Source: a virus
DNA: 64,000 bases
Virus record (IMG/VR): IMGVR_UViG_3300044617_002200
Location: 19,406-83,405 of that record
Direction: 5' to 3' (one strand)
Of this stretch, positions 47,575 to 63,468 are shown one piece after another; position 1 is the stretch's first letter, and the number at the start of each line of letters is the position of its first letter. The translations under genes were made by a program, and so were the position numbers. Under the pieces are notes generated by a model that ran no database searches, was not told where the DNA came from, and saw nothing but the letters and a program-made list of their open reading frames with translations.

Positions 47575-47784
47575 ATGTATTGTCCTCATAATGAACATGA
47601 TGAAGTCTTCGACAAAGTCGAAGGAGGTTGGTTCCATGTTAGCCACTATGAACTGAGCAAAAACAAATATCGCTATGTGTATGCAGGCGATACTTTTACA
47701 AGCCCCAAAACGGGTAAGAAGTGGCAATACTACCGGAAAGGAAATGAGCTTAAAGTTCGTCCTTTCAAGGAGTTAGCTAGTTAA
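47575..47784 (+). CDS. Small hypothetical protein, paralog family B
   Basis: MYCPHNEHD...GDTFTSPKTGKKWQYY; paralog of 50406-50648. Confidence 0.85.
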   Translation: MYCPHNEHDEVFDKVEGGWFHVSHYELSKNKYRYVYAGDTFTSPKTGKKWQYYRKGNELKVRPFKELAS

Positions 47785-48020
47785 ATAAAAAACTCCTCAT
47801 AAGTAACTCAAACACAATGAGTTGCGCAAGGCCGCCCCCCCGCCGGTTGCAAGTTGTTGAAAATAAAATAGTTATAATGAAAACACTAGCAGGAATCATG
47901 CCAGCCATACCGAGTATGGTTGCCATATCAAGTATGGTTGGCACGGGAGTTGCTTCAAAAAAAATGCAATCGCACGAAAAAATTTGTTGCATTCGAGACG
48001 ATCTGTGATAGATTAGAACC

Positions 48021-48215
48021 ATGAAAGACACCATAACACTCGACCACGGACACCACATCGCCATCCGCGTTGCTCTCATGCAACACATCCGCACTCAATT
48101 CGGGATTCGTCGCTTGCTCAATAATCGCGAGTCAATCACCGATGCAATCTCGGCCCTTCGTCTCGTCCGCAACTCGGACAAGCTGGAATCCACACCCTAC
48201 TCTTTCAAAAAATAA
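48021..48215 (+). CDS. Small hypothetical protein, family C
   Basis: Leaderless start; weak similarity to 49185-49382. Confidence 0.7.
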   Translation: MKDTITLDHGHHIAIRVALMQHIRTQFGIRRLLNNRESITDAISALRLVRNSDKLESTPYSFKK

Positions 48216-48254
48216 TTCTTGCAATCAATCAATCAACCCACTAATCTCTAAACA

Positions 48255-48482
48255 ATGAACATCAAATCCACAATCCAATTCGACGCCACTCGTTCCGTGT
48301 CCTCTTCGGGAAATACAGAATGGTGGAAATTCACCATCACCGCCAATCGTTCTTTGTCCAAGAACACCATCGAACACATCTGCCAGATTCATGGGTGCTT
48401 CGGTCAGTCTTTCAGCTACACCGATAGCAAAGTCGAAGGCGTGTTTACCTATTCGGGCGAAGCCACTTGCTACTGCGACTAA
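48255..48482 (+). CDS. Small hypothetical protein, paralog family A
   Basis: GNTEWWKFTITANRSLSK...GEATCYCD. Confidence 0.85.
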   Translation: MNIKSTIQFDATRSVSSSGNTEWWKFTITANRSLSKNTIEHICQIHGCFGQSFSYTDSKVEGVFTYSGEATCYCD

Positions 48483-48949
48483 TATGATCGCCACTATAAT
48501 CTTCGCATTACTAATGCTTTTACTCTTCAGATTGTTAGATTCTAACTACTAAAAACATGGATAACATCATAAAAACTATAGCCTTCTGCGTGTTTGGGTA
48601 TGCGATGGTAAGCCTCTTCTTTGAGCTTGCCGATTACATAGGCAGGCACGGGCTGTAGGTTGGCACGATTCTTGCTAGCAAAAATAACTCAAATAAGTTA
48701 CTATAAACCAATGACTTGCAGAGGGCCGCCCCCCGCGCAGTCGTAAGTCTTTGAGAATAAGTTGTTTATACTTGGCACGCTTCTTGCTGTGGTAGGTGGA
48801 AGTGTTAGCAGAAACCATGCCAACCATATCCGATATGGCAACCATACAGCGTATGGCATTACTACCTTGGCACGCTTCTTGCTTCAAAAAAATGCAATCA
48901 CACAAAAAAATTTGTTGCGTTCGCGGTGCTTCCGTGGTAGTCTATAAAC

Positions 48950-49180
48950 ATGAAAGTGAAAAACACAAAGACCACCGAACTGAAACCCTTCGTCCTCCGC
49001 GCTCAATTCGGGCTGATGCCAGTTGCCATGAAGCGGGTTTACTTGCCTTGCTACCGCAAGGCGACACGCAATCACCCGCAATGGGACGCCGCCGTTGCGG
49101 CCAGCATCTCCGCTCTTGCCGAAGACCTCGGCTTGTCAGCTTCCTTCCGTCCTGCTTTCTATCAAATCAACTCCCTCTAA
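48950..49180 (+). CDS. Small hypothetical protein
   Basis: ATG 6 nt after the TAGTCT -10 box. Confidence 0.7.
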   Translation: MKVKNTKTTELKPFVLRAQFGLMPVAMKRVYLPCYRKATRNHPQWDAAVAASISALAEDLGLSASFRPAFYQINSL

Positions 49181-49184
49181 TATA

Positions 49185-49382
49185 ATGAAATACAACCTCG
49201 ACTTCAACGAAAAAATTGCATTGCAAGTCTCTCTTATCCGTCAAGTTAGGGAGCTTAATTCTCTCCGCAATACTTGGGTTGTTAGCTCTCGCGCCAGCAT
49301 TCGCGCTGATCTTCGCCGGACAATCTCGATCCTTCGCAAAGTTCAGAAATCTGTAAATGTGCAACTCGAAACTGTTGAATAA
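49185..49382 (+). CDS. Small hypothetical protein, family C
   Basis: MKYNLDFNEKIALQVSLIRQVRE... Confidence 0.6.
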   Translation: MKYNLDFNEKIALQVSLIRQVRELNSLRNTWVVSSRASIRADLRRTISILRKVQKSVNVQLETVE

Positions 49383-49385
49383 CTT

Positions 49386-49556
49386 ATGAACATAACACAA
49401 AAAGAAAAACTGATGCGTAAACTTCATGAAAGCGCGCAATGTTTTGCAAACAAAGCACATAAAGCAGATAGAAATGGTAAAATGGTATCTTCTTTTATAA
49501 ATCTCAATCTTTATAATCTGTGCTATAATCTTAGAGACATAATCCGTTCAAAATAA
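49386..49556 (+). CDS. Small hypothetical protein, paralog family D
   Basis: MNITQKEKLMRKLHESAQCFANKAHKADRNG...FINLNLYNLCYNLRD; paralog of 51231-51386. Confidence 0.75.
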   Translation: MNITQKEKLMRKLHESAQCFANKAHKADRNGKMVSSFINLNLYNLCYNLRDIIRSK

Positions 49557-49569
49557 ACAATATAAAAAT

Positions 49570-49779
49570 ATGACAAAAATACTAAAAGCAATAGTGCCGG
49601 CAACAAAAAACCAAGGAAGTTGTTGCATTCTAGGAACTTGTAGTTTTTTTGAAACATACAAGCAAAATGTCCTGTGGCAATATAACAAGATGAGAGAACA
49701 TGATGGTTTTCCGCCTGTAATGAGGATGCCGTCTGGGACAAAATACGCATACAAACCATACTTGGGGGTAATTGTATAA
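49570..49779 (+). CDS. Small hypothetical protein
   Basis: 69 aa ORF (LWQYNKMREHDG). Confidence 0.55.
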   Translation: MTKILKAIVPATKNQGSCCILGTCSFFETYKQNVLWQYNKMREHDGFPPVMRMPSGTKYAYKPYLGVIV

Positions 49780-50063
49780 TGATTTTTGTAATTGCTTCTA
49801 TCGTAGGTGTTTACCTAATGAGTAAATGAACATAAACCCCTCTACAACAACAACTTGCAGAGGGCCGCCCCCCGCGCGATTACAAGTCATTAAAAATAAA
49901 CAACTTATAAAAAATCTGATAGCAGGATTCATGCCAGAGTTGTTGCCATACTAAGTATGTATTGCCATACTCGATATGGTTGGCACGAAAACTGCTTCAA
50001 AAAAAATGCAGCCGGATAAAAATAATTGTTGTGTTTCCGATCATCCCGTGATACCTTTTAACC

Positions 50064-50363
50064 ATGAACAACACGAACACCGAAGCCAGCAACGAAATCC
50101 TCGACTCCGAAATCTCCGCTCTCGCCGCTCATGCACCACAAGAGCAACCTTTCCCCAATGACGACGATTATAGCGACGATTCCTATGGGGTCACTCGCGA
50201 CGACGACACAACTGATGGCGACGATTGTTCGGAGTTCGACGGGGAACCCGAACCACGCGAAGATCACTTCCGCGACGATGTGGACGCTGACGCCGACACT
50301 CTCGCGAGTGCTGGCTACGGCACGGACGAGGACTACGGATACTTCGGGGGCGAAGATTACTAA
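50064..50363 (+). CDS. Highly acidic small protein
   Basis: 99 aa, D/E-rich, ends ASAGYGTDEDYGYFGGEDY; leaderless start. Confidence 0.75.
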   Translation: MNNTNTEASNEILDSEISALAAHAPQEQPFPNDDDYSDDSYGVTRDDDTTDGDDCSEFDGEPEPREDHFRDDVDADADTLASAGYGTDEDYGYFGGEDY

Positions 50364-50405
50364 TCAACTAACTCACTCAACATCAACCAATAACTAATAA
50401 AATAT

Positions 50406-50648
50406 ATGTATTCACCTCATACTGAACACGATCAAGTTTGGGACAAATGGAACAACGAATGGGCGTATGTCAGCCACTTCGAGCTTGAGAAACGCCAAAA
50501 TCGTTTCCGCTTTGTTTACCACGGCGACACTTTCACAAGTTCCAAGACTGGAAAGGTTTGGCAATACTACAAGAAGGGCGACGAACTTGGAGTCCGTCCT
50601 TACAAACCCGCCTCTTCAACCCCTTCTCTTGCAACTACTAATGCTTAA
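50406..50648 (+). CDS. Small hypothetical protein, paralog family B
   Basis: MYSPHTEHD...GDTFTSSKTGKVWQYY. Confidence 0.85.
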   Translation: MYSPHTEHDQVWDKWNNEWAYVSHFELEKRQNRFRFVYHGDTFTSSKTGKVWQYYKKGDELGVRPYKPASSTPSLATTNA

Positions 50649-51029
50649 TAATATGAAAACAAAACTAATCCATCTACTGTTTGGATCTCCCGAAATTGTT
50701 GGCACGCTTCTTGCTTGCAACATTGCATGGTTCACGCAATCAACTTGGCTGCAACGGCTTGAGCGCAATGGCGAACTCTACAGATACCTTATGAAGTAAA
50801 TCTTTAATATTCAATAACTTACGCAAGCGCGCCCCCCCGTCAGTTGCAAGTCATTGAAAACAAAACACTTGACCATCCAAATTGCTAGCAGGATTCATGC
50901 CAAGAATCAAGCCATACGCTATATGGCAAGCCATACTTGGTATGGTTGGCACACTTTTTGCTTCAAAAAAAATTCAACCGCATGAAAATAATCGTTGCTT
51001 TTCTGTGAGTCCCGTGATACCTTTACAGC

Positions 51030-51185
51030 ATGAAAGTTGAAATGATTGAACGCTACGCTGAAGCCTTCCGCAAGTTTGAAGCGGGTGAAATCACCCTCCA
51101 GCAATGGACTGATCTTTGTCTTTTGGTTCTTGAGGAAATTATGAACGAGCACAAGGAAATGTTTGTTCGGTTGAAAAACCGCTAA
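51030..51185 (+). CDS. Small hypothetical protein (51 aa)
   Basis: MKVEMIERYAEAFRKFEAGEITLQQWTDLC...; leaderless start. Confidence 0.7.
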   Translation: MKVEMIERYAEAFRKFEAGEITLQQWTDLCLLVLEEIMNEHKEMFVRLKNR

Positions 51186-51230
51186 AATTCTCTGGACACA
51201 TAACAAAAAACCAATTAAATTCTAACCACC

Positions 51231-51386
51231 ATGAAAAACAAACTGCTCCTCGCCCTTCATCAAAACGCTCAACGCTTCATCAACCGCTCTCATCTCGCTG
51301 ATCGCCGTGGGAACCAAGTCTGCGCGTTTATCAACTTTCACCTCTACAATCTTTGCTACAATCTCCGCAATGCAATCCGCAACTAA
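51231..51386 (+). CDS. Small hypothetical protein, paralog family D
   Basis: MKNKLLLALHQNAQRFINRSHLADRRG...FINFHLYNLCYNLRN. Confidence 0.75.
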   Translation: MKNKLLLALHQNAQRFINRSHLADRRGNQVCAFINFHLYNLCYNLRNAIRN

Positions 51387-51393
51387 TAAAAAA

Positions 51394-51573
51394 ATGAAAA
51401 TATCTTTTGCACATCTTTTGACGGCTCTTTTTATCGGATTAAAACTCACGGGATACATCAACTGGTCGTGGGTTTGGGTTCTGTCTCCCATCTGGATCAC
51501 ATTGTTGTTTGCGCTTACTTTTATCGCCATAGGTGCGACGCTTGGCGTAATCATAAAAAAAAGGGAAAAATAG
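51394..51573 (+). CDS. Small phage membrane protein
   Basis: LFIGLKLTGYINWSWVWVLSPIWI motif, common in phage membrane proteins. Confidence 0.75.
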   Translation: MKISFAHLLTALFIGLKLTGYINWSWVWVLSPIWITLLFALTFIAIGATLGVIIKKREK

Positions 51574-51617
51574 TTCTTTACCCCCACTCTTAAAATTAGT
51601 AAAATAAAACTCACACC

Positions 51618-52112
51618 ATGAAGCTAACCACCAAAACCAAAGACCCGTTGAACTACATCGAAGCAAACTTGATCCTTCACAAGATCGGCAATCAGCTTCC
51701 ATACTTTTCCCTCACGGGGCGCATTGTTAAGCACGGACACGAGACTACAAGCGGAGCAATCCACAAAGAAATTCTTGAGGCATTCCCGCAACTCGAAGAT
51801 GCCGCCGCACTTCACCTTTCCGATATGAACGGCAAACCGATGCACTCTTTCGAGAATGGAAAGTATTGGGCTGGGTTTACAAAGTTGAACGAATGCAGTA
51901 GCAAAAACCTTGCAAGCCTTTGGAGAATTAGTCAAAATCGTGCGGCGGGTCTTACTCGTGACGCGCTCATGGCTCAACTCTGGCAGGATGGCGACAGCGA
52001 CACTTTGCCGGAAACTCTTCTCAAAGACTTTCACGATAGACAGTTGCGCCGTTGGAAGCAGGAAGCTGATAATGTCATCAAGAAGTATAATCTGGAAATT
52101 GTTCTTTCTTAA
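51618..52112 (+). CDS. Hypothetical protein
   Basis: 164 aa; PYFSLTG...SGAIHKEIL..FP.L...LHLSD.NG.PMH..ENG.YW; own promoter. Confidence 0.75.
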   Translation: MKLTTKTKDPLNYIEANLILHKIGNQLPYFSLTGRIVKHGHETTSGAIHKEILEAFPQLEDAAALHLSDMNGKPMHSFENGKYWAGFTKLNECSSKNLASLWRISQNRAAGLTRDALMAQLWQDGDSDTLPETLLKDFHDRQLRRWKQEADNVIKKYNLEIVLS

Positions 52113-52165
52113 TGAGTTCAATCGTCTATCAAATTATAGTAAGCAAAAAACAAAAACAAAACACC

Positions 52166-52429
52166 ATGAAAAAACTAATACAAAACATCAAACGCAAGGT
52201 CATTCTTATCTCATTCTGTATCAATTTGATGCTATGCTTTGCTTCATGTGCATACTTTAGCGCGGCAGAAACTAAAATGCGAGAAGTTCGTGATATTCAA
52301 CGAGATGCAAAAGAAGTTCTTGACACGCCTGATCTTACTGGTTGGAGCATTGATGAATTAGAGGATGCTGTCAATAAAGACATTAAAACTTTAGAAAAGG
52401 CGTATAAACAGAGAGGGGGAAAAATATGA
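52166..52429 (+). CDS. Hypothetical membrane-anchored protein
   Basis: MKKLIQ... with one TM segment. Confidence 0.55.
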   Translation: MKKLIQNIKRKVILISFCINLMLCFASCAYFSAAETKMREVRDIQRDAKEVLDTPDLTGWSIDELEDAVNKDIKTLEKAYKQRGGKI

Positions 52430-52726
52430 ATACTCGCTAACGCAAAGCTCTCGTAATCAATGGGTTGCGAGAGCGCGCCCCCCCCGCCCGACGCAACTCA
52501 TTGAAATACAATAACTTATGCAAAAGTTAAAGTTTTGAAATTAAAAAACTTATATCGCAAACCGCTTTCGTTCAATTATTTGCGGCTTTCAAGATTCTTA
52601 TTTGTCTATTTAGTATTTTACTATTTCACTATTTGTCGCTCGATTGGCACGGAACTTGCTTGCAAAAAAATAATTTTTTTGTAAAAAAACTTGTCCTCAC
52701 GAAAAAAAATGAGATAATAAAAAACG

Positions 52727-53401
52727 ATGAAACTCCTATCTGCTAACAACACCAAAATCAAAAAAGGCGAGAAACTTGGATGGCGCACTCTCGGGTTGTC
52801 GCTTGCTCCTGCTAATCTGTCCGGCAAACAACTTTGCCCTCATCGCTCTGCTGGCTGTGAAGCGGCTTGCCTCAATACTTCTGGAATGGGGGCTTTCTCG
52901 AATGTTCAAGAGGCACGAATTAAAAAAGCAAAACTGCTGATTGAAAACCGCGCTGTTTTTCTTGCTCAACTCGAAAAAGAGCTTGTCAATCTAAACAAAC
53001 GCGCTGGCAAAGGAAATCAAACCGCCGTGCGTCTTAATGTGCTTTCCGATCTTCCTTGGCATAATTTGATTGACATGGAAAAATTTCCAAACCTCAAATT
53101 TTATGATTACACGCCAAACCCTGCGCGAATGATTCAATTCCTGCGCGGGGAACTTCCTGCAAATTATCACTTGACATTTTCTCGCAAGGAAAGCAATCAA
53201 GCGCAAGTTCAACTAATCTCCAGCATGGGCGGCAATGTAGCCGTTGTTTTTGACAATCTCCCGGAAACCTATCTCGGCAAGCCTGTTATAGATGGAGATG
53301 AAACCGATTTGCGTTTTCTTGACCCTAAAAATGTAGTAATTGGCTTAAAAGCAAAGGGTAAAGCCAAAAAAGATTATTCTGGATTTGTTGTCAAAATCTG
53401 A
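52727..53401 (+). CDS. GP88-like Cys-cluster protein (radical-SAM-related)
   Basis: CPHRSAGCEAACL, VRLNVLSD, FYDYT, NYHLTFS, GDETDLRFLD, GLKAKG. Confidence 0.7.
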   Translation: MKLLSANNTKIKKGEKLGWRTLGLSLAPANLSGKQLCPHRSAGCEAACLNTSGMGAFSNVQEARIKKAKLLIENRAVFLAQLEKELVNLNKRAGKGNQTAVRLNVLSDLPWHNLIDMEKFPNLKFYDYTPNPARMIQFLRGELPANYHLTFSRKESNQAQVQLISSMGGNVAVVFDNLPETYLGKPVIDGDETDLRFLDPKNVVIGLKAKGKAKKDYSGFVVKI

Positions 53402-53765
53402 TACGATATGGCATGGAAACATGGATAACGCTTTTATGTATAGCATTGGTTTTCTTTGCTTTAATCAAATCAAAAAAATAATGCGATAAGAAAAAAATAG
53501 TTGGCACGATTCTTGCTTGTGTCTCGCGTTTAAGTAAACCACTAAACGCCAACGACTTGCGGCGGGCCGCCTCCCGCGCAAAAGCAAGTTCTTGAAAGAG
53601 AATGACTTATGTAAAATGCATTAGCAAGAACCATGCCAAGATTCAAACCATATCTAGTATGGCAAGCCATATTGAGTATGGTTGGCACGATACCTGCTAT
53701 AAAAAAAATTCAAAAATAAAAAAATAATTGTTGCGCTTCAACAAGGGCTGTGATAAATTTTAATC

Positions 53766-53957
53766 ATGCTGAACACAATGACTATTGAACTCGATGATTT
53801 CATCACTCATTCTCATTCAGACGAATTTTCTTCCGAATGGGAGGAACAACAAAAAATTCTGAAAGCCTGTGCCTATGAGGCATGGCTTGACGAACAAGAA
53901 AGAAAATACTGGGAAAATCTTTCGCTAAAAAGTGAAGGTTTCTCTTGCACACACTAA
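53766..53957 (+). CDS. Small acidic hypothetical protein
   Basis: Leaderless start after TAAATT. Confidence 0.65.
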   Translation: MLNTMTIELDDFITHSHSDEFSSEWEEQQKILKACAYEAWLDEQERKYWENLSLKSEGFSCTH

Positions 53958-53981
53958 AACAAAACACTAATATCACCACTT

Positions 53982-54527
53982 ATGAAAAAAGCCAACATCA
54001 TCATCAGCACATACGGAAACGGAATCGCGGTCGGACTCCAAGGAACTAAGGATCAGATCGAACAATCTTTCAACCGCTTTTTTAATTGGGGCGCGGCGGC
54101 TCCAAATATAACATTCATGCGCTCAAACGAGGATTGCGAAACCAATATCGGTGACATGGGCGATTCTTACTTGCATGAAATTTTCGATGGTTTTTGCTAC
54201 TTCCTTTCTACTGAACAAGATATGATCAAAGCTCTTGCAAGTGAATATCTTTTTAACTGGCAAGATACTTCTATATCAAAACAATACAAAGGCGTTCGCA
54301 ATAACAAAAAAATTGCTGGATTAAAATTCCGAGAAGATGCCCAAAATGCTGCTCGCGAAGAGTTTAACAGCTACACTAAAGAAAACTTTATGCTTTACAA
54401 TAAATCAGAGTCACCCCTTTTCAAAGTCTCTGATGGAGGCGCGCCTTCATATGACTCATCATCAATGACTTTTGGAGAAGTCGCAAGAACTTATGGATAC
54501 AAAAGCCGATTAGCTCCAGCAGTATAA
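53982..54527 (+). CDS. Hypothetical protein
   Basis: 181 aa ORF. Confidence 0.7.
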   Translation: MKKANIIISTYGNGIAVGLQGTKDQIEQSFNRFFNWGAAAPNITFMRSNEDCETNIGDMGDSYLHEIFDGFCYFLSTEQDMIKALASEYLFNWQDTSISKQYKGVRNNKKIAGLKFREDAQNAAREEFNSYTKENFMLYNKSESPLFKVSDGGAPSYDSSSMTFGEVARTYGYKSRLAPAV

Positions 54528-54898
54528 GCTGGCACGATAATTGCTAGGCTGGCGAGTGCGTAGCGCGGACCAGCCTGGCACGCTTTTTGCTTACAGTTTT
54601 TAAAGCAAATGATTGAATATCAATGACTTGCAAAAGTTGGGCCACCCCCGCGCACGCAACTCTTTGAAAGCAAACAAGTTATGACTTGAAATCACAAAAT
54701 GTGATTTTCACAATACTTTGGCGTTCATCTTGTTATACAACTGGTCGAAATTTGCGACCAGTTATACAAAACACATATTTGCTTATTATTAGATTCTTAT
54801 TTGGTCACGAATACGTTCCTATTTGATTTTAAATCTTTTAGCAATTCTAAAAACAATTGACATTTTATAAAAATTAATTTATATTAAACATATATTTG

Positions 54899-54973
54899 GG
54901 GTTGGTAGCTCAATGGTAGAGCAGTGCCCTTTTAAGGCATTGGTTCTGGGTTCGAGTCCCAGTCAACCCACCA
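54899..54973 (+). tRNA. tRNA-Lys(TTT)
   Basis: Cloverleaf; loop CTTTTAA; GGTTCGAGTCC; encoded CCA. Confidence 0.92.
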
Positions 54974-55066
54974 TAGCAAGATTCATGCCAATTTTTTTTT
55001 CATAAAAATTATTTTTTGAAAAAATCTATTGACTCGATATTCAAGATAGACTACTATGAGGTTGTC

Positions 55067-55315
55067 ATGAAAAACATCATCAATCAAATCAAACTCGCAG
55101 TTGCTGATTCCAAACTTGGTTCATTTATGAATCCCGTGTATGATCTGAAATACTGCCGAGAAGACGGAGTGGTCAAGAATTATTCTACCTCTCGTCCCTT
55201 TGACAAATTTAACGATGGTTTCGTAGCTTATTCTTTCGGAAACGGCATTCGACGCTTTCGTTTTGATCGAATCCTTGACCGCAGGGTGAGAACCTTGTTT
55301 GCAAAAAATGCTTGA
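55067..55315 (+). CDS. WYL-like small protein
   Basis: KY..EDG...VAYSF..GIRRFRFDRI motif; TTGACT-17-TACTAT promoter. Confidence 0.55.
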   Translation: MKNIINQIKLAVADSKLGSFMNPVYDLKYCREDGVVKNYSTSRPFDKFNDGFVAYSFGNGIRRFRFDRILDRRVRTLFAKNA

Positions 55316-55349
55316 CCTCGATTGAAAATTTGTGTAAAAAATAGTTTGT

Positions 55350-55486
55350 AGGAGCGGGTTGGTTCCCGATGAACCAATAGGCAGGTGTGTCACTTGCGAA
55401 ACAAAATCGGAAACCTTAAGTCTCTACCAAAGGTAGGAACTCCATAGAGGTTTGACCGCTGAACCAGCAATGCAAATCAGCGGTAA
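55350..55486 (+). ncRNA. Putative structured ncRNA
   Basis: Multiple hairpins (ttggttc/gaaccaa, gcaggtg/cacttgc, ctacc/ggtag, aaacct/aggttt, accgctga/tcagcggt) downstream of a TTGACC promoter. Confidence 0.45.
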
Positions 55487-55591
55487 TGATCTTTGAAAAT
55501 TTTAATATATGGTCGTCGGCTGAAGTGCAAGCGTCTGATTGGATCACCAGAGGGCACAATAATGCCGAGTTAACACGGCCACCTTTTAGTA

Positions 55592-55663
55592 TGCGATTTA
55601 GCTCAAATAGTAGAGTCCTGCATAGTAGGCAGGAGGCTATCGGTGCAATTCCGATAATCGCAG
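55592..55663 (+). tRNA. Atypical tRNA, apparent anticodon AGT (Thr)
   Basis: TGCGATT/AATCGCA acceptor stem, cctgc-ATAGTAG-gcagg, T-loop GTGCAAT. Confidence 0.55.
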
Positions 55664-55668
55664 AAAAG

Positions 55669-55742
55669 TAACTCGTGGTGTAACCGCAAGCATCCTGCGC
55701 ATGAACGCGGGGGTGAGGGTTAAAGTCCCTCCGAGTTATCCA
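55669..55742 (+). tRNA. tRNA-like RNA with non-canonical anticodon loop
   Basis: TAACTCG/CGAGTTA acceptor stem plus T-CCA; T arm gaggg-TTAAAGT-ccctc; loop CATGAA (6 nt) or 8 nt. Confidence 0.55.
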
Positions 55743-56010
55743 ATTTTAGCTTGCTAGGGGACAAGAGGCTCCATGCCTCGTCCTGTAAGTGCGTAGCGCG
55801 ACAAAGGCTTACCCTAGCGTGGCTAGTTTTTTTGGTAAATAGAGTAGTAATACCTATTCCGGTGCCTCGAAAGCGGGGCGGTGCTTAATAAGGTGTTTCG
55901 AGAATATACACAGCCGCCTACCATTCATTTTCATAGAAACTAAAAAATAGTTAAAAGAATACTTGATGTATAGTGTAATTTATAGGTATCGCAATTTGCG
56001 ATACCAAAAC

Positions 56011-56086
56011 TGCGATGGGCTAGGCCAGGTGGTCTGATGTGTCTCATAAGCACATAAACTGGGTTCGAGTCCCAGCGTCGCTACCA
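56011..56086 (+). tRNA. tRNA-Met/Ile2 (CAT)
   Basis: Loop CTCATAA, GGTTCGAGTCC, CCA; 1:72 mismatch. Confidence 0.8.
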
Positions 56087-56169
56087 ATTTGGGGTAAACA
56101 TTAAACCGAGCCGCGACCCAAATACAGGGTGTTTATTCCAGAAGCGTCGCGGGTAAACGCTTCTACTTT

Positions 56170-56241
56170 TGAAGTATAGCTCAATGGTAGAGCGGGGCGC
56201 TGTTAACGCCTAGGTTGTAGGTTCGAGTCCTACTACTTCAG
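56170..56241 (+). tRNA. tRNA-Asn(GTT)
   Basis: Cloverleaf, loop CTGTTAA. Confidence 0.9.
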
Positions 56242-56250
56242 TATTTATAT

Positions 56251-56323
56251 GTGGCTCGTGGTGTAGCGGCTAGCATTACTCACTGTGACTGAGTCGGGAC
56301 GGGTTCAAATCCCGTCGAGCCAA
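56251..56323 (+). tRNA. tRNA-His(GTG)
   Basis: actca-CTGTGAC-tgagt, GGTTCAAATCC, G at -1. Confidence 0.85.
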
Positions 56324-56326
56324 TAC

Positions 56327-56400
56327 GCGGAATTAGTTTAATGGTAGAACTGGACTCTTCCAAAGTCAGGACGAGGGTTCGATTCCCTCATTCCGCACCA
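56327..56400 (+). tRNA. tRNA-Gly(TCC)
   Basis: GCGGAAT/ATTCCGC acceptor stem, loop CTTCCAA, CCA. Confidence 0.9.
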
Positions 56401-56401
56401 T

Positions 56402-56474
56402 ACCGAGATAGCATAATTGGTAGTGCAACAGAATTTGGATCTGTCGGTTGATCGTTCGAGTCGATCTCTCGGTG
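56402..56474 (+). tRNA. tRNA-Gln(TTG)
   Basis: acaga-ATTTGGA-tctgt, GTTCGAG T-loop. Confidence 0.8.
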
Positions 56475-56486
56475 CTTTTAATTTTT

Positions 56487-56585
56487 GCCGGTGTAGCTCA
56501 GCGGTAGAGCAGCAACCCACTCATGGTGAAGGACCTAATGCCGTGGGATAAAAGCAAGCCGTTGGTTCGAATCCAACCACTGGTT
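56487..56585 (+). ncRNA. tRNA-like RNA with expanded anticodon domain
   Basis: Canonical acceptor stem, D arm (TAGCTCAGCGGTAGAGC) and T arm (GGTTCGAATCC), but about 25 extra nt in the anticodon region. Confidence 0.7.
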
Positions 56586-56866
56586 CTCTGTAAATCTTTA
56601 TTAATAAGAGAGATGCGAATGCAAGCCTGCCCGCCGCGCGCAAGTCTTTGAAAGAGAAGATCTTATCAAAATGGCTTGACAAAAAAATAAAAATTAATTA
56701 AAATTCGGCATGAAGATTAAAACTTTTTATCTTATTATTAGCACCCCGAAGGTTCAGAAAACCATGCCCAAGCCTTGTCGTCCTATTTCAAAAAAAGGTT
56801 ACTCTCGAAAAATAAAACACAAAAATCTTCTTGCATTGGACTAAAAAATCAGCTATCTTAATAAAG

Positions 56867-57556
56867 ATGATCACCACTAACATCACCACGGAAAATATCG
56901 TTGCACCATTTATTCTCGCTCCAGTCGAGAGTTTTTTTGCGTCTATCACCGATTCTGAACGCACTTTTCAAACAGACTACTGGAAGGAAGTTTCTCCAGA
57001 AAATGATTCCGAATGTTTTCGGAGATTTTTGTTTGCGTATTGTAGCGTTCATACTACTTGGGAATCGAATATCAAAGCATACAATCTTATCAAGAATTGG
57101 TGGGAGTGGATCAATCAATGGGATGAATTAGAGAACCGCATCAAACAAAGCGGGGCGGGTCTTTATAGAAATCGTGTTCGTTTCATCAAAGATTTTTGTG
57201 CCAAGTTTTGGGCGAACCCTTGCTTTTATACCAAGCAGACAGAAAACGAATCTTGGACTGATTTTCGCAATCGCATTGAGAAAGCAATTCTCGGTCTTGG
57301 TATGGCAAAATCCAGCTTTGCAATCGAAATGATGTATCCTACAATCGGTCAAGTTTTTTGTGCCGATACTCATATGTTTCAACTCTATGGTTGTAATCAA
57401 ACCAAAGATTCTAAAAAATACCAAGACATCGAGAAACATTGGGTTCGTATGTCTTTCGAGTATGAAATCTCTCCATACATTGCTCGTTGCATTTTCTGGG
57501 ACAGAAAACAAAAGCAAGAAAATTCTCGCTACTGGTCGTATGTTTTGGAAAAATAA
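56867..57556 (+). CDS. HhH-type DNA glycosylase-like protein
   Basis: ILGLGMAKSSF HhH-like motif and CADTHM; GAGLYRNRVRFI. Confidence 0.55.
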   Translation: MITTNITTENIVAPFILAPVESFFASITDSERTFQTDYWKEVSPENDSECFRRFLFAYCSVHTTWESNIKAYNLIKNWWEWINQWDELENRIKQSGAGLYRNRVRFIKDFCAKFWANPCFYTKQTENESWTDFRNRIEKAILGLGMAKSSFAIEMMYPTIGQVFCADTHMFQLYGCNQTKDSKKYQDIEKHWVRMSFEYEISPYIARCIFWDRKQKQENSRYWSYVLEK

Positions 57557-57594
57557 TCCTTGAATTTAAAATCAAAAAAATATATTCTTTCAAT

Positions 57595-57789
57595 ATGATC
57601 ATCACACGCAAATCACCATTCAGCGGTAAAATTAACAAGATGGATATCAATGTCACAGCGGGTCAAATTGTCCGTTGGGAAATGGGAGAGTTGATTCAAA
57701 ATGCCATGCCGAATTTAACCCCATCAGAACGCGAGTTCATTAAAACTGGGATAACTGATGAAGAATGGCAAGCAGCTTGTGGTGAATAA
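57595..57789 (+). CDS. Small conserved-looking phage protein
   Basis: MIITRKSPFSGK...LIQNAMPNLTPSEREFIKTGIT..EW. Confidence 0.7.
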   Translation: MIITRKSPFSGKINKMDINVTAGQIVRWEMGELIQNAMPNLTPSEREFIKTGITDEEWQAACGE

Positions 57790-58201
57790 TATAAACAAAC
57801 AAAACAAACAAACAAAAAACATATGAAAATAATCGAAGGCGCAATCTATAAATATAATGATGAACTCGTCCGCTTGCGTAAGCGAGTCGGAATCATGGCT
57901 GTCTTGTCTCGTCGCAAGAAAGCAGGGTTTATTGGTGTTACTAGCAAGCTTGAAAAGGTCAATAAGAAACAGGTAGCTAAATTTCTAGGACACACATGAA
58001 ATAAATACTTGAAACTCAAGGCCTTGCGAAAGGCCGCCCCCCCCGCGCGCCGCAAGTCCTTATAAATAAAGGGTTTATAAAATAACCTCTAGCAAGAATC
58101 ATGCCAACTTCTGAAGTCGAAAAATACGGCTTCAAACTTTAATAAAAAAAATCAAAAAAAAATCTTGCCGTGCGTTCAAATCATAGTATGATGAAATCTC
58201 A

Positions 58202-58993
58202 ATGAAAGCACTAAACCTAACACTACATTGCGGCGGCCACTCCGTCGAATCCACCGAAGTTCAACAGGTCGCCACTCCTATGGCTACCGACTCATGGCAT
58301 CCGATTCCTCACTTTTCGCTCATCGAGCGTCTTCGTGAGATTGTTTCTGACGCTGGAATGACAATCACGCAAGAAGCTCATGCCCTTGCTCGTAATGGAC
58401 TCCGCTATTTTGGGCTTTTCCAAGTGGCGGGAATCCCTAACTTCTCTCAAGAAGACAACATTGGAACTGTAATCGGGCTTCGCAATTCCCATGACAAGTC
58501 TTTTCCAGCCGGAATCAACGCGGGGTCTGCTCCGTTCGTTTGTGATAATCTTGCGTTCCATAACGAAATCAAGATTGCTCGTCGTCACACCAAGTTCATC
58601 ATGCGCGATTTACCGACGCTTTTAGCAGGAGCATTTGGTAAGCTGACTACAACTTGGGGCAACAATGCGGCACGAATCGAAGCCTATCAATCGCGTCAGC
58701 TTAATAACCCAGAAGCTCACGATATTCTTGCTAGAGCATATCGTTGCGGTGCAGTAAGTAAGACTCATCTTGCGGATGTGCTTGACCAATGGCATAATCC
58801 AGAACATGAGGAATGGAAACCAGAGCGTAATCTGTGGGGTCTGCATAATGCCTTCACTAATGTCATGCGTGGCAATGTGTTAGCACTACCAAAGCGTAGC
58901 GATGCCCTACATGGTCTGCTCGACCCGCTGGCGGGAGTAAAGTTCGCCAGAGCAGAAGAAGTTGGCGATGAGGCACTTGCCCTCCCTGCTTAA
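58202..58993 (+). CDS. DUF932-family protein
   Basis: PIPH, GLRNSHDKS, FVCDNLAF, RRHT, LWGLHNAFT. Confidence 0.75.
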   Translation: MKALNLTLHCGGHSVESTEVQQVATPMATDSWHPIPHFSLIERLREIVSDAGMTITQEAHALARNGLRYFGLFQVAGIPNFSQEDNIGTVIGLRNSHDKSFPAGINAGSAPFVCDNLAFHNEIKIARRHTKFIMRDLPTLLAGAFGKLTTTWGNNAARIEAYQSRQLNNPEAHDILARAYRCGAVSKTHLADVLDQWHNPEHEEWKPERNLWGLHNAFTNVMRGNVLALPKRSDALHGLLDPLAGVKFARAEEVGDEALALPA

Positions 58994-59008
58994 CCTATAA
59001 GCAATTAA

Positions 59009-59043
59009 GTTTAAGGCTCCAAATCGGAGCCTTAAATTTTTTT
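59009..59043 (+). terminator. Rho-independent terminator
   Basis: tttaaggctcc-aaatc-ggagccttaaa followed by a T-run. Confidence 0.8.
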
Positions 59044-59190
59044 GCGACTAGGTTCTTTTACAAGTCATTTAACAGTAATGAGTTGCGTGCGAGCGCCCCC
59101 CGGCCCGCCGCAAGTCTTTGCTAATCAAGGCGTTATAGCTGATTTTTTTTATTTGACACCGAGTAGAAATAACAATACTTTTATTTCGAT

Positions 59191-59535
59191 ATGTCACCAC
59201 AAGAAATCCAATCAATCGCAGACTTGACCGCTAAATTTTTAGGCTTGACAATTAGACCAAAAGCTATAATCAAAGAAACCAGCAGGGGCTATGCTTGGAC
59301 TGATAAAGGTTGGTTTACAATGCCACAATGGGCGATTGATCATAGCGAAGAATGTGCGATGTATATAATCATCCATGAAATTTGTCATTTTTTGAATGGA
59401 GGGTTAGATCATGGCACGGAATTTGCTTCCGTAGAAGATCGCGCTCTTGAATTTTGGAATTTGAAAATAGAAAGAACAAAAAAAAATGTATATGCAAAGA
59501 AAATAATTTCCAAACGAGGGGTTTTTTCTATTTGA
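59191..59535 (+). CDS. SprT/M48-like HEXXH metalloprotease
   Basis: YIIIHEICH...HGTEF. Confidence 0.7.
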   Translation: MSPQEIQSIADLTAKFLGLTIRPKAIIKETSRGYAWTDKGWFTMPQWAIDHSEECAMYIIIHEICHFLNGGLDHGTEFASVEDRALEFWNLKIERTKKNVYAKKIISKRGVFSI

Positions 59536-59569
59536 CTTCTACCAAAAATAAAATTAAATTTATATTCCT

Positions 59570-59752
59570 ATGCCAAAACTAAAATCCTACAAAATTATTA
59601 GCGATACTGACGGAAACGATTTTTTCAAAGTTTCTGCAAGAGACGAGTGCGATGCCGCGATGGAGGGCTTGGAGCAACTTGGATGGTTTGTTTCTGAATC
59701 TAACTCCGAAGACGAAGAAGAAGACGAAAACCAATATCAATTTAATTTCTAA
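59570..59752 (+). CDS. Small acidic hypothetical protein
   Basis: 60 aa with own TTGACT promoter. Confidence 0.6.
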   Translation: MPKLKSYKIISDTDGNDFFKVSARDECDAAMEGLEQLGWFVSESNSEDEEEDENQYQFNF

Positions 59753-59795
59753 AAAAACATTGACTCAATCATAAAAAAATACTATTCTAAAAAAG

Positions 59796-60611
59796 ATGAA
59801 AACACTAACTGCCTTTATCAAAACCGACGACTCACTTACCATCGTTATCGACAACACCCCGAAAACGATGTCTGTTAATCACCCCTCTTTCGACGATGCA
59901 ATCTCTGCTCTTGAGAATGGCGACATCGACTTGCTCGACTCTCTTTTCGATGTGAAAAACAAAATCCAAAAAGAGTTTGTTTCTACAAGTTCCCGATTTG
60001 GTGGGGTTGAAATTTGTGATGATGGAACAATCCTCTATAATGGAGAAGTTATCCATAATTACATTGTTGACAAAATCTTCGAGTTCATGGATTGCCGACT
60101 GCCTTTCCAACCTCTTGTCAACTTCTTGGAGAAACTGATGGAGAACCCTTCTAAACGCGCAGTTGATGAACTTTACAAGTTCTTGGAACACAAGCATCTT
60201 CCTATCTGCGAAGATGGTGATTTCCTTGCCTACAAGAGTGTTCGCGAAGATTATATGGATCACCACTCTGGAAAGTTCAGTAATCATGTGGGGTCAGTTC
60301 TTGCGATGCCTCGCAATGCAGTCTGCGACGATGCTGATGTTGGTTGCTCTTATGGTTTCCATGCTGGTAGCTATGAATACGCTTCGACATTCGGCGGAAG
60401 TGGTTCTCGCCTTGTGATTGTCAAGATCAATCCTGCTGATGTTGTTAGTGTTCCGCGTGATTGTAATTGTCAGAAACTCCGCACTTCTCGATATGAAGTT
60501 ATGAAGGATTTCGAGGAAATCTACAATAAGCCTCTGAATACAGAGTTTAAGTCGAAAAACTCTCATAATCAACGAGATAGTAAGGGCAGGTTTGTTGCGA
60601 AAGCAAAATAG
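59796..60611 (+). CDS. rIIB-like protein
   Basis: NPSKRAVDELYKFL, DGDFLAYKSV, MPRNAV.DD....CSYGFHAG, VKINPADVVSVP.D....KLRT.RYEV. Confidence 0.85.
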   Translation: MKTLTAFIKTDDSLTIVIDNTPKTMSVNHPSFDDAISALENGDIDLLDSLFDVKNKIQKEFVSTSSRFGGVEICDDGTILYNGEVIHNYIVDKIFEFMDCRLPFQPLVNFLEKLMENPSKRAVDELYKFLEHKHLPICEDGDFLAYKSVREDYMDHHSGKFSNHVGSVLAMPRNAVCDDADVGCSYGFHAGSYEYASTFGGSGSRLVIVKINPADVVSVPRDCNCQKLRTSRYEVMKDFEEIYNKPLNTEFKSKNSHNQRDSKGRFVAKAK

Positions 60612-60657
60612 TTTCAATACCGAGTAAGTATTGAAAGTTGGTTAGTGGTGGGTCAGC

Positions 60658-60697
60658 GGCGGCAAGACTTGTGGTGGGTCTTGCCGCCTTTTTTTTG
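60658..60697 (+). terminator. Rho-independent terminator
   Basis: ggcggcaagac...gtcttgccgcc followed by T8. Confidence 0.85.
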
Positions 60698-60900
60698 TGC
60701 CACAGCTTTTGTTGTAAATTACTCCAAGTCAAAGAGTTGCGGCTGCCGCCCCCCCCGCGCTGTGCAAGTTGTTGATAATCATGCTTTTATACTAAAACCT
60801 GTAAGCAAGAATCGTGCCATAAAAAAATAAATAAAAATTAAAAAAAAATGCTTGCGCGGTGTTCAAATTATAGTAATATGAGATTTCACCAATACCACAC

Positions 60901-63165
60901 ATGATTATAGCTCAATCCAAAGCAAATGTTGTCACTAACGGAATCCAAGGTGCTGTTTCTTTCGGCATCAAAAACGATGGTCTTGCTCACATTTTTAATG
61001 TGCTACGCAACCAACTTTATTCCGATAAAATTCTTGCCATTCTCCGCGAGTATTCTTGCAATGCCGTGGATGCCCATGTTGAAAACGGATGCGGTTCTCG
61101 ACCTATTGAGGTCACGCTTCCGAATCGTCTTGAACTCTCTCTCAAAATCCGTGACTTTGGTGCTGGATTGAGTGAAGAAGATATTCAAGAAATCTATGCG
61201 TTTTATGGAGAGTCCACTAAACGCCAAAGTAATTCTCTAATCGGTCAACTCGGTCTTGGTAGTAAATCCGCGTTTTCTTATGGTGACAATTTTGTAATCA
61301 ATAGTTTTAACAACGGACTAAAAACAACTTACAACGCATATATCGACCCTTCCCAAATCGGTCAAATTGCTAAACTTGCGAGTGTTAGTTCTAAAGAGGA
61401 AAGCGGAGTCGAGATTGTTATTCCTGTTAAACCTTCTGATGTTGAAACTTTTGCTGAAAAAGCCAAGCAGGTATTCAAATACTTTGCAGTAAAGCCTATC
61501 ATTAAGGGTGTTGCTCCTATTGACTTTGGAAATAGAGCATCTTCCTTGGAGGGTCAAAATTGGCGCATCGTTAGTAATGATAGAAGTGTTTATGGTAGCT
61601 CGCAAAAGTCCGTAGCTATAATGGGTAATATCGGTTATGTTATTAACCCTTCTTCATTGAAACTCGATGAGAATGTTTCTGATGATTCTATCTGCCAGAA
61701 ACTTGTGTCTAACTCTAATCTTGATTTTGAAGTTAAGTTCAATATCGGTGATTTGGACATTGCCGCATCCCGCGAAGGATTGCAATATACAGATAGGACT
61801 ATCAATGCTATCAAATCTAAATTCGTAGGAATCCACAACGAAATCGTTGATAAGGTTTCTAAAGAAATGGATACAGCACATAGCGAGTTTGCTTTCAAAA
61901 AAATGATTGGCAATATGTCTGATATGTCCAGTCCTTACTACTTTGTTAGTCGTGCTGTTAAGAATTTGAAGTGGAAAAACAAGGTTGTTTCTTCCAATAT
62001 GTTTACCTTTCCTTCTCCGAGTCGTGCTATTCGATATACTCCGAGGCGTGGATATGTGGGTGGTAATTATACTACAAAAGGCGGAGATTTAATTACTGAT
62101 ATGGATAATAAAAATATCCATCTCAACGACAAAGAAGTTTTTATTGAAAATACCCGTAAACTTCGTTCTTGTTTAGTTAATTATGCTTACAACTTTCTAA
62201 AGGATGGTAAATCTGTTTGTATTCTTACTTTCGATAATAAAACTCAACGCGACAATTATCTGAAAGCGAATGGGTTGGTTGATAGTGACTTGGTTGACAT
62301 TTCTACTCTCCAAAAAATCATCCTGCCTCGCAATACTCGCAGTCGTGTGAATACTAATGTTTCGACTGCTGTTCGTAGCAAGCACACTAAAAATGTTTTT
62401 CAGCTTAAAACTCAAAACATTCCTTCTTACACTTCTGTTCGTTCGGACTATTGGGAAGAAGTAAATGTCGATCTGGATGACAAAAACCTTAAATCCGAAT
62501 ACGCTTGGGTTGACATCGAAAGATTTGAAGCGGTTCTTAACAAAACCCGCGACATTGTAATCGCCCCTTCTTCCCTTGTTGCTCTTAATCGCCACATGGA
62601 AACAATTAAAAAGCAATATCCTTCTTTTGTTATTCCTAAAATCATTGGCGTTAAGTTCGGAAAAACAGATGGAGATTCTATTCGTAAAGCAACTCAAAAC
62701 CTAAAAGACTTTGTGACCGATCAACTTAAAAGTTTGTATGGCAAAGATAATCTTTCGGATAAGTTTTGGGCGGGAGAAATGAGTAGCAAGTTTTCTTCTG
62801 ACAATTATGTTCTATTCCGTTGCGTGTTTCCTTTGCTAAAAGAAACCATTGCTCCTAACGCTTTTAAGATTTTGAACGAGCTTAAAGATGCCTCTACCCC
62901 CTCTCAAAAAGAGACTCATCTTCTTACTCCTTCACGGGATATAAAGCAAATCTTGAAAATCAAAGATTCTGAAATTTACAAAAATCAATCAGACAATCTG
63001 AATAAACTTTCTGACAAATTAAACAAAGTTGAGAAAGCCCTTCCATTGCTGAAAGTTGTAGATCAATATGACTTCAATCAGTATCGTGATAAAAAAGATA
63101 TTGCAAAAAATGCTTCTATTGATTATGTTCAGACAAGAGACTTTATGCTATGTGGTGTAGCGTAA
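60901..63165 (+). CDS. rIIA-like protein (GHKL/Hsp90-type ATPase N-terminus)
   Basis: LYSDKILAILREYSCNAVDAH, IRDFGAGLS, YGESTK, IGQLGLGSKSAFSY, DIAASREGL. Confidence 0.88.
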   Translation: MIIAQSKANVVTNGIQGAVSFGIKNDGLAHIFNVLRNQLYSDKILAILREYSCNAVDAHVENGCGSRPIEVTLPNRLELSLKIRDFGAGLSEEDIQEIYAFYGESTKRQSNSLIGQLGLGSKSAFSYGDNFVINSFNNGLKTTYNAYIDPSQIGQIAKLASVSSKEESGVEIVIPVKPSDVETFAEKAKQVFKYFAVKPIIKGVAPIDFGNRASSLEGQNWRIVSNDRSVYGSSQKSVAIMGNIGYVINPSSLKLDENVSDDSICQKLVSNSNLDFEVKFNIGDLDIAASREGLQYTDRTINAIKSKFVGIHNEIVDKVSKEMDTAHSEFAFKKMIGNMSDMSSPYYFVSRAVKNLKWKNKVVSSNMFTFPSPSRAIRYTPRRGYVGGNYTTKGGDLITDMDNKNIHLNDKEVFIENTRKLRSCLVNYAYNFLKDGKSVCILTFDNKTQRDNYLKANGLVDSDLVDISTLQKIILPRNTRSRVNTNVSTAVRSKHTKNVFQLKTQNIPSYTSVRSDYWEEVNVDLDDKNLKSEYAWVDIERFEAVLNKTRDIVIAPSSLVALNRHMETIKKQYPSFVIPKIIGVKFGKTDGDSIRKATQNLKDFVTDQLKSLYGKDNLSDKFWAGEMSSKFSSDNYVLFRCVFPLLKETIAPNAFKILNELKDASTPSQKETHLLTPSRDIKQILKIKDSEIYKNQSDNLNKLSDKLNKVEKALPLLKVVDQYDFNQYRDKKDIAKNASIDYVQTRDFMLCGVA

Positions 63166-63193
63166 TCGTGGAGTGTTAGTCATGGTGAAGACT

Positions 63194-63222
63194 GGGGGCG
63201 GGAAACCGCCCCCTTTCTTTTT
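63194..63222 (+). terminator. Rho-independent terminator
   Basis: ggggcgg-gaaa-ccgcccc hairpin followed by a T-rich tail. Confidence 0.85.
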
Positions 63223-63392
63223 GCCTTGGGGAAGACTGACGCAAAGTCCTCAATATAAAAGAGTTGCGACTGGCCGGGGGGGCGCGGCTCCGCAACTCAT
63301 TGGTATTCAATGCTTTATACAAACTTTAAAACAGTGATCTAGAAAAGGGTTGACATCGGCTTCAGGATGTATTATTATAGGTTGTATTATAA

Positions 63393-63468
63393 GTCTCCAT
63401 AGTGTAATCGGTTAGCACAGCACCCTTTCACGGTGTTAGTAGGGGTTCGAATCCCCTTGGGGATGCCA
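63393..63468 (+). tRNA. tRNA-Glu(TTC)
   Basis: Cloverleaf, loop CTTTCAC, CCA; TTGACA-17-TATTAT promoter upstream. Confidence 0.9.

Follow-up and report, generated by a model that had tools for sequence, protein, structure and literature searches.

The window analysed here is a stretch of 64,000 nucleotides, i.e., the right-hand 64 kb of the 83,405-base IMG/VR virus record IMGVR_UViG_3300044617_002200 (estimated completeness about 55%). The subject is a 77-base double palindrome, hereafter the dyad, which is repeated between the early genes of this phage. The left 47 kb of the window, i.e., the late arm, are AT-rich (26-37% GC). Most open reading frames (ORFs) called in it lie on the minus strand, and most are without a PHROG family, those assigned including terminase, endolysin and PhoH. 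From about 47060 the genes lie on the plus strand and the GC content is about 40%. Small ORFans predominate in this early region, which contains also a GP88-family gene, a DUF932 gene, rIIB, rIIA and a tRNA cluster.

The region has zero matches among cultured phages by megablast. For terminase and rIIA compared with cultured phages by tblastn, all matches are below 30% identity and none is a near relative; rIIA alone, used as a protein query against viral contigs, has no relative either. The sequencing runs matched by the phage are seven DNA runs, all of them lake or freshwater metagenomes, and no RNA run is among the runs listed. The dyad is a real, conserved and previously undescribed phage cis-element; no description of it was found in the literature searched, subscription journals and supplements being outside the scope of that search.

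Anatomy and conservation of the dyads

The first-pass annotation, made from the letters of the window alone, had placed twelve dyads in the early region. All twelve were found, at 47799-63318 and 0.9-2.5 kb apart (start-to-start distances of 894-2527 bp). They were detected independently, with a weight matrix built from 57 arms of other phages only and a threshold of 8 bits. Over the whole 83,405-base record 25 matches exceed 8 bits, against a mean of 0.7 (maximum 2) in 20 shuffles, and 22 of them are inside the twelve dyads. The other three are lone weak matches within early ORFs (49615, 52282 and 58954). As had been noticed before, the late arm is devoid of dyads (zero matches), and the same is true of the 19 kb of the record left of the window.

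Eleven copies are on the plus strand: c01 (47799-47875; arm 27, core 23, arm 27, with the C-run on the plus strand), c02 (48693-48769, whose right arm is under the 8-bit threshold), c03 (49832-49908), c04 (50796-50872), c05 (52442-52519, core of 24, upstream of the GP88-family gene), c06 (53534-53610), c07 (54605-54682, with the best-scoring left arm, 30.4 bits, and a C-run of five), c08 (about 56596-56666), c09 (58001-58078, core of 24, upstream of the DUF932 gene), c10 (59060-59136) and c11 (60714-60790). The twelfth, c12 (63241-63318), is on the minus strand, i.e., its core is inverted with the G-run on the plus strand. Copy c08 is degenerate: its right arm is at 56640-56666, its core has 17 nt and its left arm is lost. 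The dyads begin 0-15 nt past stop codons. All copies are intergenic, as claimed earlier, with the exception of c04, which shares its first bases with the stop codon of a small ORF. At the late/early boundary (47011-47061) an arm-like GCAACTC...AAGTAAA is followed by eight consecutive G that immediately precede the first sigma-54-type box (see below); this stretch, which scores under the matrix threshold, may be a decayed thirteenth copy.

The tRNA cluster (54899-56585 and 63393-63468) is bounded by c07, which precedes it, and c08, which comes after it. A 99-nt tRNA at 56487-56585 is called by Rfam and is absent from the ARAGORN calls; its anticodon arm may contain an insertion. Two stretches, 55300-55590 and 55670-56000, have a structured appearance without matching an Rfam family.

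The anatomy was established on 44 copies from 8 sources. The layout of two palindromic arms around a core stands, though the arms measure 27 bp and not 26 bp as first described. Each arm reads RYAAGT-nn-TTGA-nnn-TCAA-nn-ACTTRY, and the arm consensus among relatives is GTAAGTCGTTGATWATCAAGCACTTGC. The element is thus a double palindrome of 77 bases with four half-sites ATCAA-SG-ACTTRC (half-site logo W-W-T-C-A-A-S-G-A-C-T-T-R-C); inner half-sites end with TTGC, outer half-sites with TTAC or TTAT. Positions AA(3-4), T10, A18 and TT(24-25) show little or no variation in either arm. The conserved positions include the outer boxes, on which the copy finder did not select.

The core has 23-24 nt in 11 of the 12 window copies, so that the geometry, described as constant to within 1 bp, is indeed constant except for the 17 nt of c08. 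Across phages the core is GC-rich, 21-24 nt long and often (R)GGCCG-C5-8-GCGC. Its length stays at 21-24 nt while the C-run ranges from 5 to 8 and the sequence varies among phages; one variant is itself palindromic and one is less GC-rich. It must be noted that the copy finder accepted only copies with GC-rich cores, and this selection accounts in part for the GC-richness of the collection. In pattern scans free of this requirement all copies with true arms are GC-rich except for one core with 59% GC and one AT-rich core on a contig of a metagenome-assembled genome (MAG).

The core had been called a polar poly-C core. A C-run of at least 5 on the plus strand is present in nine window copies; c06 has CCTCCC, c08 has none and c12 is reversed. 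Runs of six C are enriched (22 versus 5.6 expected) and the core polarity in the window is 11:1. Eight dyad pairs of the window and of the related phage G002 were matched by their flanking genes: polarity is kept in six, including the inverted c12, ambiguous in one and flipped in one (c11 versus G002 9835-9911). In other relatives some cores are flipped relative to the promoter side. A strictly directional role of the core is thus unlikely. The core looks like a GC-rich spacer of fixed length, the homopolymer run being unaccounted for.

Two other readings of the pattern were discarded. A sigma-70 promoter within the element is only apparent, the fixed gap of 17 nt between GCAAGT and TTAT corresponding to the arm's own outer half-site. 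As for a small ORF spanning the dyad, the similarity of the peptides comes only from the repeated DNA and the length of the C-run shifts the frame.

The first-pass annotation had preferred a protein-bound site to an RNA hairpin and proposed covariation as the check. The 44 aligned copies bear out this preference, i.e., they show positional conservation without compensatory change, with the caveat that covariation tests have little power on near-invariant stems. In the inter-arm helix, pairing occurs in 70.8% of the cells versus 73.6 +/- 0.7 in shuffled sets (500 of 500 shuffles at least as high), and the covariation score is 0.110 versus 0.138. For hairpins within one arm the values are 73.5% and 73.9% (394/500). 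The outcome is the same when the eleven near-identical copies of the relative G001 are left out. When only the seven variable positions are counted, pairing of an arm with its own partner is seen in 0.269 of the cells versus 0.355 +/- 0.028; if anything, the two arms of one copy are alike as direct repeats (0.424 versus 0.341, a value attained by 1 of 1000 shuffles). Wobble pairs have no strand bias (65 G-U versus 84 A-C cells). All the complementarity comes from invariant palindromic positions, which points to a symmetric protein site on duplex DNA rather than to a hairpin.

Folding gives the same picture. The z score stays above -2 in 15 of 24 folds (the 12 window copies on both strands) and is as low as -3 in only 5, and the structures predicted vary among the copies. 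No T-run is found within 20 nt past the dyads on either strand. The terminator scan on the gene strand flags 0 of the 12 dyads, and its two best matches are classical terminators directly before c11 (60658-60696) and before c12 (63194-63222). A hairpin with a T-run before c10 (at about 59010-59044) was seen by eye and is absent from the list of the scan. Rfam finds only tRNAs in the window. An intrinsic terminator and a structured RNA hairpin were rejected on these grounds, i.e., pairing with the own partner no better than in shuffled sets, folds of low stability that do not agree among copies, and the lack of a U-tract. Given the little power of the covariation tests, a short 5' hairpin formed by a single arm is improbable rather than impossible.

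The half-sites resemble the consensus of integration host factor (IHF), though with more constraint than IHF requires. The four exact matches to WATCAANNNNTTR reported earlier were confirmed, at 52455, 54618, 59123 and 60765 (minus strand). Window-wide this consensus occurs at chance level (11 found versus 10.2 expected), and 4 of these 11 matches are within the 1.4% of the window that is dyad. CAANNNNTTR fits 131 of 184 half-sites from all sources (23 of 44 in the window), the full IHF consensus 59 of 184 (4 of 44 in the window). Conservation beyond the IHF consensus is found at positions A22, C23 and C27, in 160, 139 and 151 of the 184 half-sites, respectively. The two consensus matches of an arm overlap around its centre, so that at most one bend per arm is expected; two IHF or HU bends per element are therefore more plausible than the four suggested at first.

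It might be thought that the dyads are a plain array of IHF or another nucleoid protein, acting only as a bend, an insulator or a supercoil sink and involving no specific regulator. The fits of the half-sites, the concentration of exact matches in the dyads and the usual partnership of IHF with sigma-54 promoters speak for this explanation. However, the conservation of positions 22, 23 and 27 goes beyond the IHF consensus, and an exact match is present in just 4 of the 44 window half-sites. Moreover, no HU/IHF gene (PF00216) was found in the five partial phage records searched for proteins (completeness 13-67%). The plain array is thus considered rather unlikely, and the binder may be IHF-like or some other protein. 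A precedent for the plain array is the Escherichia coli bacterial interspersed mosaic element BIME-1, whose repeats bind IHF (PMC2817692).

Sigma-54-type boxes around the dyads

Sigma-54-type boxes (TGGCAYG-N4-YTGCT) occur 22 times versus 0.56 expected, all of them at 47063-60819 and none elsewhere in the record. They are on both strands and include back-to-back pairs, and face-to-face pairs in G001. The plus-strand boxes read TGGCACG and the minus-strand boxes mostly TGGCATG.

Within 160 nt of dyads in all sources, 20 of the 30 boxes directed inward, i.e., towards the dyad, are at 12-16 nt from the outer edge of the arm. This spacing means that transcription is expected to start at the edge of the arm. 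Inward boxes occur on both flanks of the dyads; the G-rich strand of the core would be transcribed from 16 of them and the C-rich strand from 6. In the window nine inward boxes at 12-16 nt adjoin eight dyads. On the minus strand these are 47888-47903 (into c01, 12 nt from the arm) and 49921-49936, 50887-50902, 53623-53638, 58091-58106 and 60804-60819 (12-14 nt). On the plus strand they are 48661-48676 (into c02 from the left, 16 nt), 53502-53517 (into c06, 16 nt) and 54576-54591 (into c07, 13 nt). Copy c06 has such a box on each flank. A further inward box on the minus strand, at 48807-48822, is at 37 nt. In three near-identical loci from the later viral scan the inward box is at 10 nt. The genes of G001 are oriented the opposite way, hence the «inward» boxes are there in the sense of the genes.

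Boxes directed outward are more distant. In all sources 12 of 22 are at 60-74 nt from the arm and 3 at 3 nt. At 60-74 nt the centres of the arms are placed at about -100 and -150, which fits the distance of a sigma-54 enhancer (upstream activating sequence). The outward boxes of the window are in the sense of the genes, on the plus strand: 47939-47954 (63 nt right of c01), 49981-49996, 50947-50962 and 53683-53698 (72-74 nt), 52645-52660 (125 nt) and 48773-48788 (3 nt).

The dyad with its boxes is part of a longer repeated regulatory unit of about 230 bp (69-73% identity) in the window and of 260-300 bp (88-97%) in G001. In five cassettes of the window the gap between divergent sigma-54 boxes is filled by tandem palindromes of 18-19 bp, GCCATAC-N4-GTATGG, two in each gap (47904-47939, 49945-49981, 50908-50945, about 48823-48860 and 53640-53680). 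None were seen in the relatives examined; they may be a second protein site. A conserved leader follows each sense sigma-54 box, e.g., at 47955-48023: an A-run, a TGCAA...TTGCA inverted repeat with apparent compensatory changes among copies, GTGATAnnTT, and ATG a few bases further on. Elsewhere TTGACA-17-TAnnnT promoters are 5-15 nt ahead of start codons and no Shine-Dalgarno sequence is visible, so messages may be leaderless or nearly so.

Sigma-54-type boxes are not the only partners of the dyad. In 5 of the 8 sources (G003, G004, L035, L040 and L048) dyads are present without a strict sigma-54 box. There the dyads are followed by A/T-rich DNA and, by eye, by TTGACA-type (sigma-70-type) promoters at 68-92 nt. 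In the window sigma-70-type promoters are 9-92 nt from dyads. The geometry is fixed solely with the inward sigma-54 boxes. The coupling to sigma-54 is tight in this phage and its closest relatives, which are part of the group only.

The inward boxes lead to an RNA-level explanation, i.e., that the element is the 5' leader or small RNA made from the inward sigma-54 promoters, or else a bidirectional terminator or processing hairpin. In agreement with it, 20 of the 30 inward boxes have their predicted start at the edge of the arm; the symmetry of the arms implies that RNAs from both sides start with one consensus, and the position of the dyads, 0-15 nt past stop codons, is that expected for a terminator. 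Nevertheless, neither helix shows compensatory change, the folds are weak and variable with no U-tract on either strand, separate terminators (or, for c10, the hairpin seen by eye) precede c10 to c12 while no dyad is itself terminator-like, and Rfam gives only tRNAs. Moreover, the sequence and its reverse complement are both conserved, which an unpaired RNA does not need. A role at the RNA level is therefore unlikely.

Cassette shuffling and distribution

The early genes behave as cassettes that are permuted at the dyads. L048 has the GP88 cassette first, then a dyad, the DUF932 cassette, a second dyad and X. In G003 the DUF932 and GP88 cassettes have changed places, the two dyads and X being positioned as in L048, and L035 and L040 agree with G003 in the relative order of the two cassettes. 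The orientation is unchanged in this swap and four block ends are within 1 nt of the edge of a dyad (993/994, 2062/2063, 2324/2325 and 3716/3717). A second, independent swap distinguishes the window (DUF932, c10, rIIB, c11, rIIA) from G002 (rIIB, dyad, a stretch of about 1.3 kb and a further dyad, DUF932, dyad, rIIA). Its block ends fall within c10 or, at c11, 19 nt ahead of the dyad and 30 nt past it. The reordering known from the promoter-early stem-loop (PeSL) elements of other phages is thus found here twice, each time with dyads where the cassettes join.

Within the G003 group, blocks of homology span from a gene to the far edge of its upstream dyad. The dyad is retained beside GP88 and DUF932 genes which are just 46-56% identical among phages. 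In orthologous dyads one arm and the core are more alike than the other arm (0.89/0.96/0.74 and 0.93/0.70/0.74); this difference, of only few bases, hints at crossovers inside the element. Paralogous pairs of small ORFans are found in separate cassettes (47336-47560 and 48255-48479; 47575-47781 and 50406-50645; 49386-49553 and 51231-51383), as is expected if cassettes duplicate.

A recombination site with an asymmetric core had been proposed at first. The permutation of cassettes at the dyads agrees with that proposal, whereas no tyrosine or serine recombinase was found in the five partial records and the core polarity flips in one orthologous pair. In its full form the dyad would be a dedicated site at which a phage recombinase swaps cassettes, as at integron attC sites, or from which circles excise, as with PeSLs. 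The permuted orders with block ends at or near dyads and the stronger orthology of one arm plus core are what such a site would leave. However, neither tyrosine nor serine recombinases were found in the five partial records, any dispersed 77-bp repeat yields such junctions through ordinary homologous recombination, and BLAST extends to the end of the dyad wherever the crossover fell. Furthermore, the core varies among phages and flips its polarity in orthologues, and target-site duplications are lacking at the dyads (identical 2-nt flanks in 4 of 44 copies with 2.4 expected, identical 4-nt flanks in 0 of 44). A dedicated recombination site is accordingly held to be distinctly improbable, and cassette shuffling could be a mere consequence of dispersed homology.

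The flanks bear also on a selfish miniature mobile element without phage function, similar to miniature inverted-repeat transposable elements (MITEs) or Correia elements. The outer boxes would be its terminal inverted repeats (GTAAGT ... ACTTAC), and the copies are multiple and all intergenic. On the other hand, identical flanks are at chance level, the position is kept beside orthologous genes across distant phages, the dyads are embedded in regulatory units of about 230-300 bp, and the element is absent from bacterial chromosomes. A MITE was rejected on account of target-site duplications that do not exceed chance, and a selfish element in general is very hard to believe in.

Two scans of IMG/VR, the second with 27 loci (25 real and 2 due to chance), found the element in 14 other contigs, usually in several copies each. 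The phage group bearing it thus has at least 15 contigs including this record. A scan of the genomes of 185,579 species gave 54 loci. Only 3 of these are full elements and 1 has arms around an AT-rich core; the contigs of these four are all from MAGs and measure 1.1-15.4 kb. The labels of these contigs are discordant: Bdellovibrionota, Puniceicoccaceae, Flavobacteriaceae and Opitutae. In the one labelled Opitutae (L117) the arms are recognisable and the AT-rich core has 22 nt. A host repeat of the repetitive extragenic palindromic (REP) or BIME kind was rejected, the full element being absent from bacterial chromosomes apart from these short MAG contigs.

Some genes of the relatives deserve mention. 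In G002 a protein with sigma-70 region 2 (L065:15410-16096) is flanked by PhoH and an ERCC4 nuclease, and an unannotated window ORF of 233 aa (25979-26677, minus strand) is syntenic to it; the product may be a phage late-gene sigma factor. The products encoded by G001 at L063:11197-12375, L062:6983-7909 and L063:12736-14631 include a protein similar to tubulin/FtsZ, an AAA+ protein similar to RuvB that ends in a winged helix, and a PhoH split by a LAGLIDADG homing-endonuclease domain.

Proposed role and comparison with known systems

It is proposed, with moderate confidence, that the dyad is a docking site on double-stranded DNA for a symmetric, sequence-specific DNA-binding protein, likely with an enhancer or architectural role at the early cassettes. 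Each pair of adjacent early transcription units has one element between them, ahead of the promoter that follows, and the GC-rich spacer keeps the two palindromic arms 21-24 bp apart. The inward-facing promoters would begin transcription at the outer edge of the arm, and from the outward gene promoters, 60-74 nt off, the arms would be seen at about -100 and -150. Most likely an activator and/or an IHF-like bending protein, of the host or of the phage, would control the adjoining promoters, by activation or by repression, and separate neighbouring units. As a side effect the copies, being dispersed homology, are also the points of cassette exchange and reordering.

Several observations weigh against this proposal: (i) no candidate binder emerges from the five partial records, in which neither HU/IHF nor the sigma-54 DNA-binding domain (PF04552) was found, nor a bacterial enhancer-binding protein (PF00158) above cut-off, the lone weak PF00158 match being a Clp-type AAA protein; (ii) no helix-turn-helix protein is present among the 28 window ORFs and 113 ORFs of two relatives; (iii) a role with sigma-54 only cannot be general, since 5 of 8 sources have no strict box and have dyads before sigma-70-type promoters at variable distance; (iv) c05, c08, c10 and c12 have no box within 30 nt, and the inward-firing promoters have no explained purpose; (v) the arm centres are 49-51 bp apart, i.e., a non-integer number of helical turns; (vi) an element spread by copying or gene conversion would likewise show little covariation.

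Should a protein bind the dyads, the regulatory grammar of an entire uncultured freshwater phage group would be defined by the element. The dyad is also a concrete, short DNA bait for the discovery of the regulator. A bolder version of the proposed docking site, to be taken as speculative and improbable, is a sigma-54 enhancer that is portable and works without DNA looping: once bound to the dyad, an activator would reach the -12 region of the sigma-54 holoenzyme placed 12-16 bp from either arm. If so, a single 77-bp element would serve the promoters of both flanks, driving or gating them, the dyad with its promoter and gene would pass among phages as a self-contained expression cassette, and the early or middle programme of the phage group would run on the sigma-54 of the host. 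Phages redirect sigma-70 polymerase. No phage whose gene cassettes carry sigma-54 promoters plus a shared cis-element was found in the literature searched.

One regulatory parallel is that of sigma-54 enhancers such as the NtrC sites at glnAp2. Paired palindromic sites about 100-150 bp upstream of -24/-12 promoters are common to both, and enhancers in the initial transcribed region have precedent: Correa and Klose reportedly described in 2005 FlrC sites downstream of the start site. However, the arms have 27 bp with two nested palindromes instead of the usual sites of roughly 17 bp, promoters abut the dyad at 12-16 nt, and the dyad occurs also without sigma-54 boxes. Constant association with a sigma-54 promoter and a cognate enhancer-binding protein is not observed (5 of 8 sources without a strict box, no PF00158 match above cut-off in the five partial records).

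Dispersed phage operators, i.e., the stoperators of cluster A mycobacteriophages and the C1 operators of P1, are short (13-17 bp), asymmetric and bound by a repressor. They share with the dyad the principle of one protein site in many intergenic copies over a phage genome; the dyad differs in having 77 bp, in being symmetric and in lacking a known binder.

The BIME-1 and RIB/RIP repeats of E. coli are, like the dyads, extragenic mosaic repeats at the ends of transcription units with GC-rich and IHF-consensus parts that are inverted. The layout of the dyad is reversed, BIME-1 having a central IHF site and GC-rich REP hairpins as arms. Moreover, BIMEs are host chromosomal repeats in hundreds of copies, while the dyad is found only on phage contigs and the four short MAG contigs.

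PeSLs of T4-type phages combine a strong sigma-70-like promoter with a stem-loop effective as terminator; recombination between them shuffles gene modules among related phages, and mini-circles have been shown (PMC2839356, PMC4122927). The dyads resemble them as small conserved repeats linked to promoters, located between non-essential or ORFan early genes, whose inter-copy recombination reorders modules. Unlike PeSLs, the dyad is a double palindrome that gives no indication of folding or of termination and is accompanied by sigma-54-type boxes; the conserved unit is thus not a sigma-70 early promoter with a terminator stem-loop but the dyad with its sigma-54 boxes. The idea that mobile regulatory cassettes drive genome shuffling would in this way be extended past the T4-like phages.

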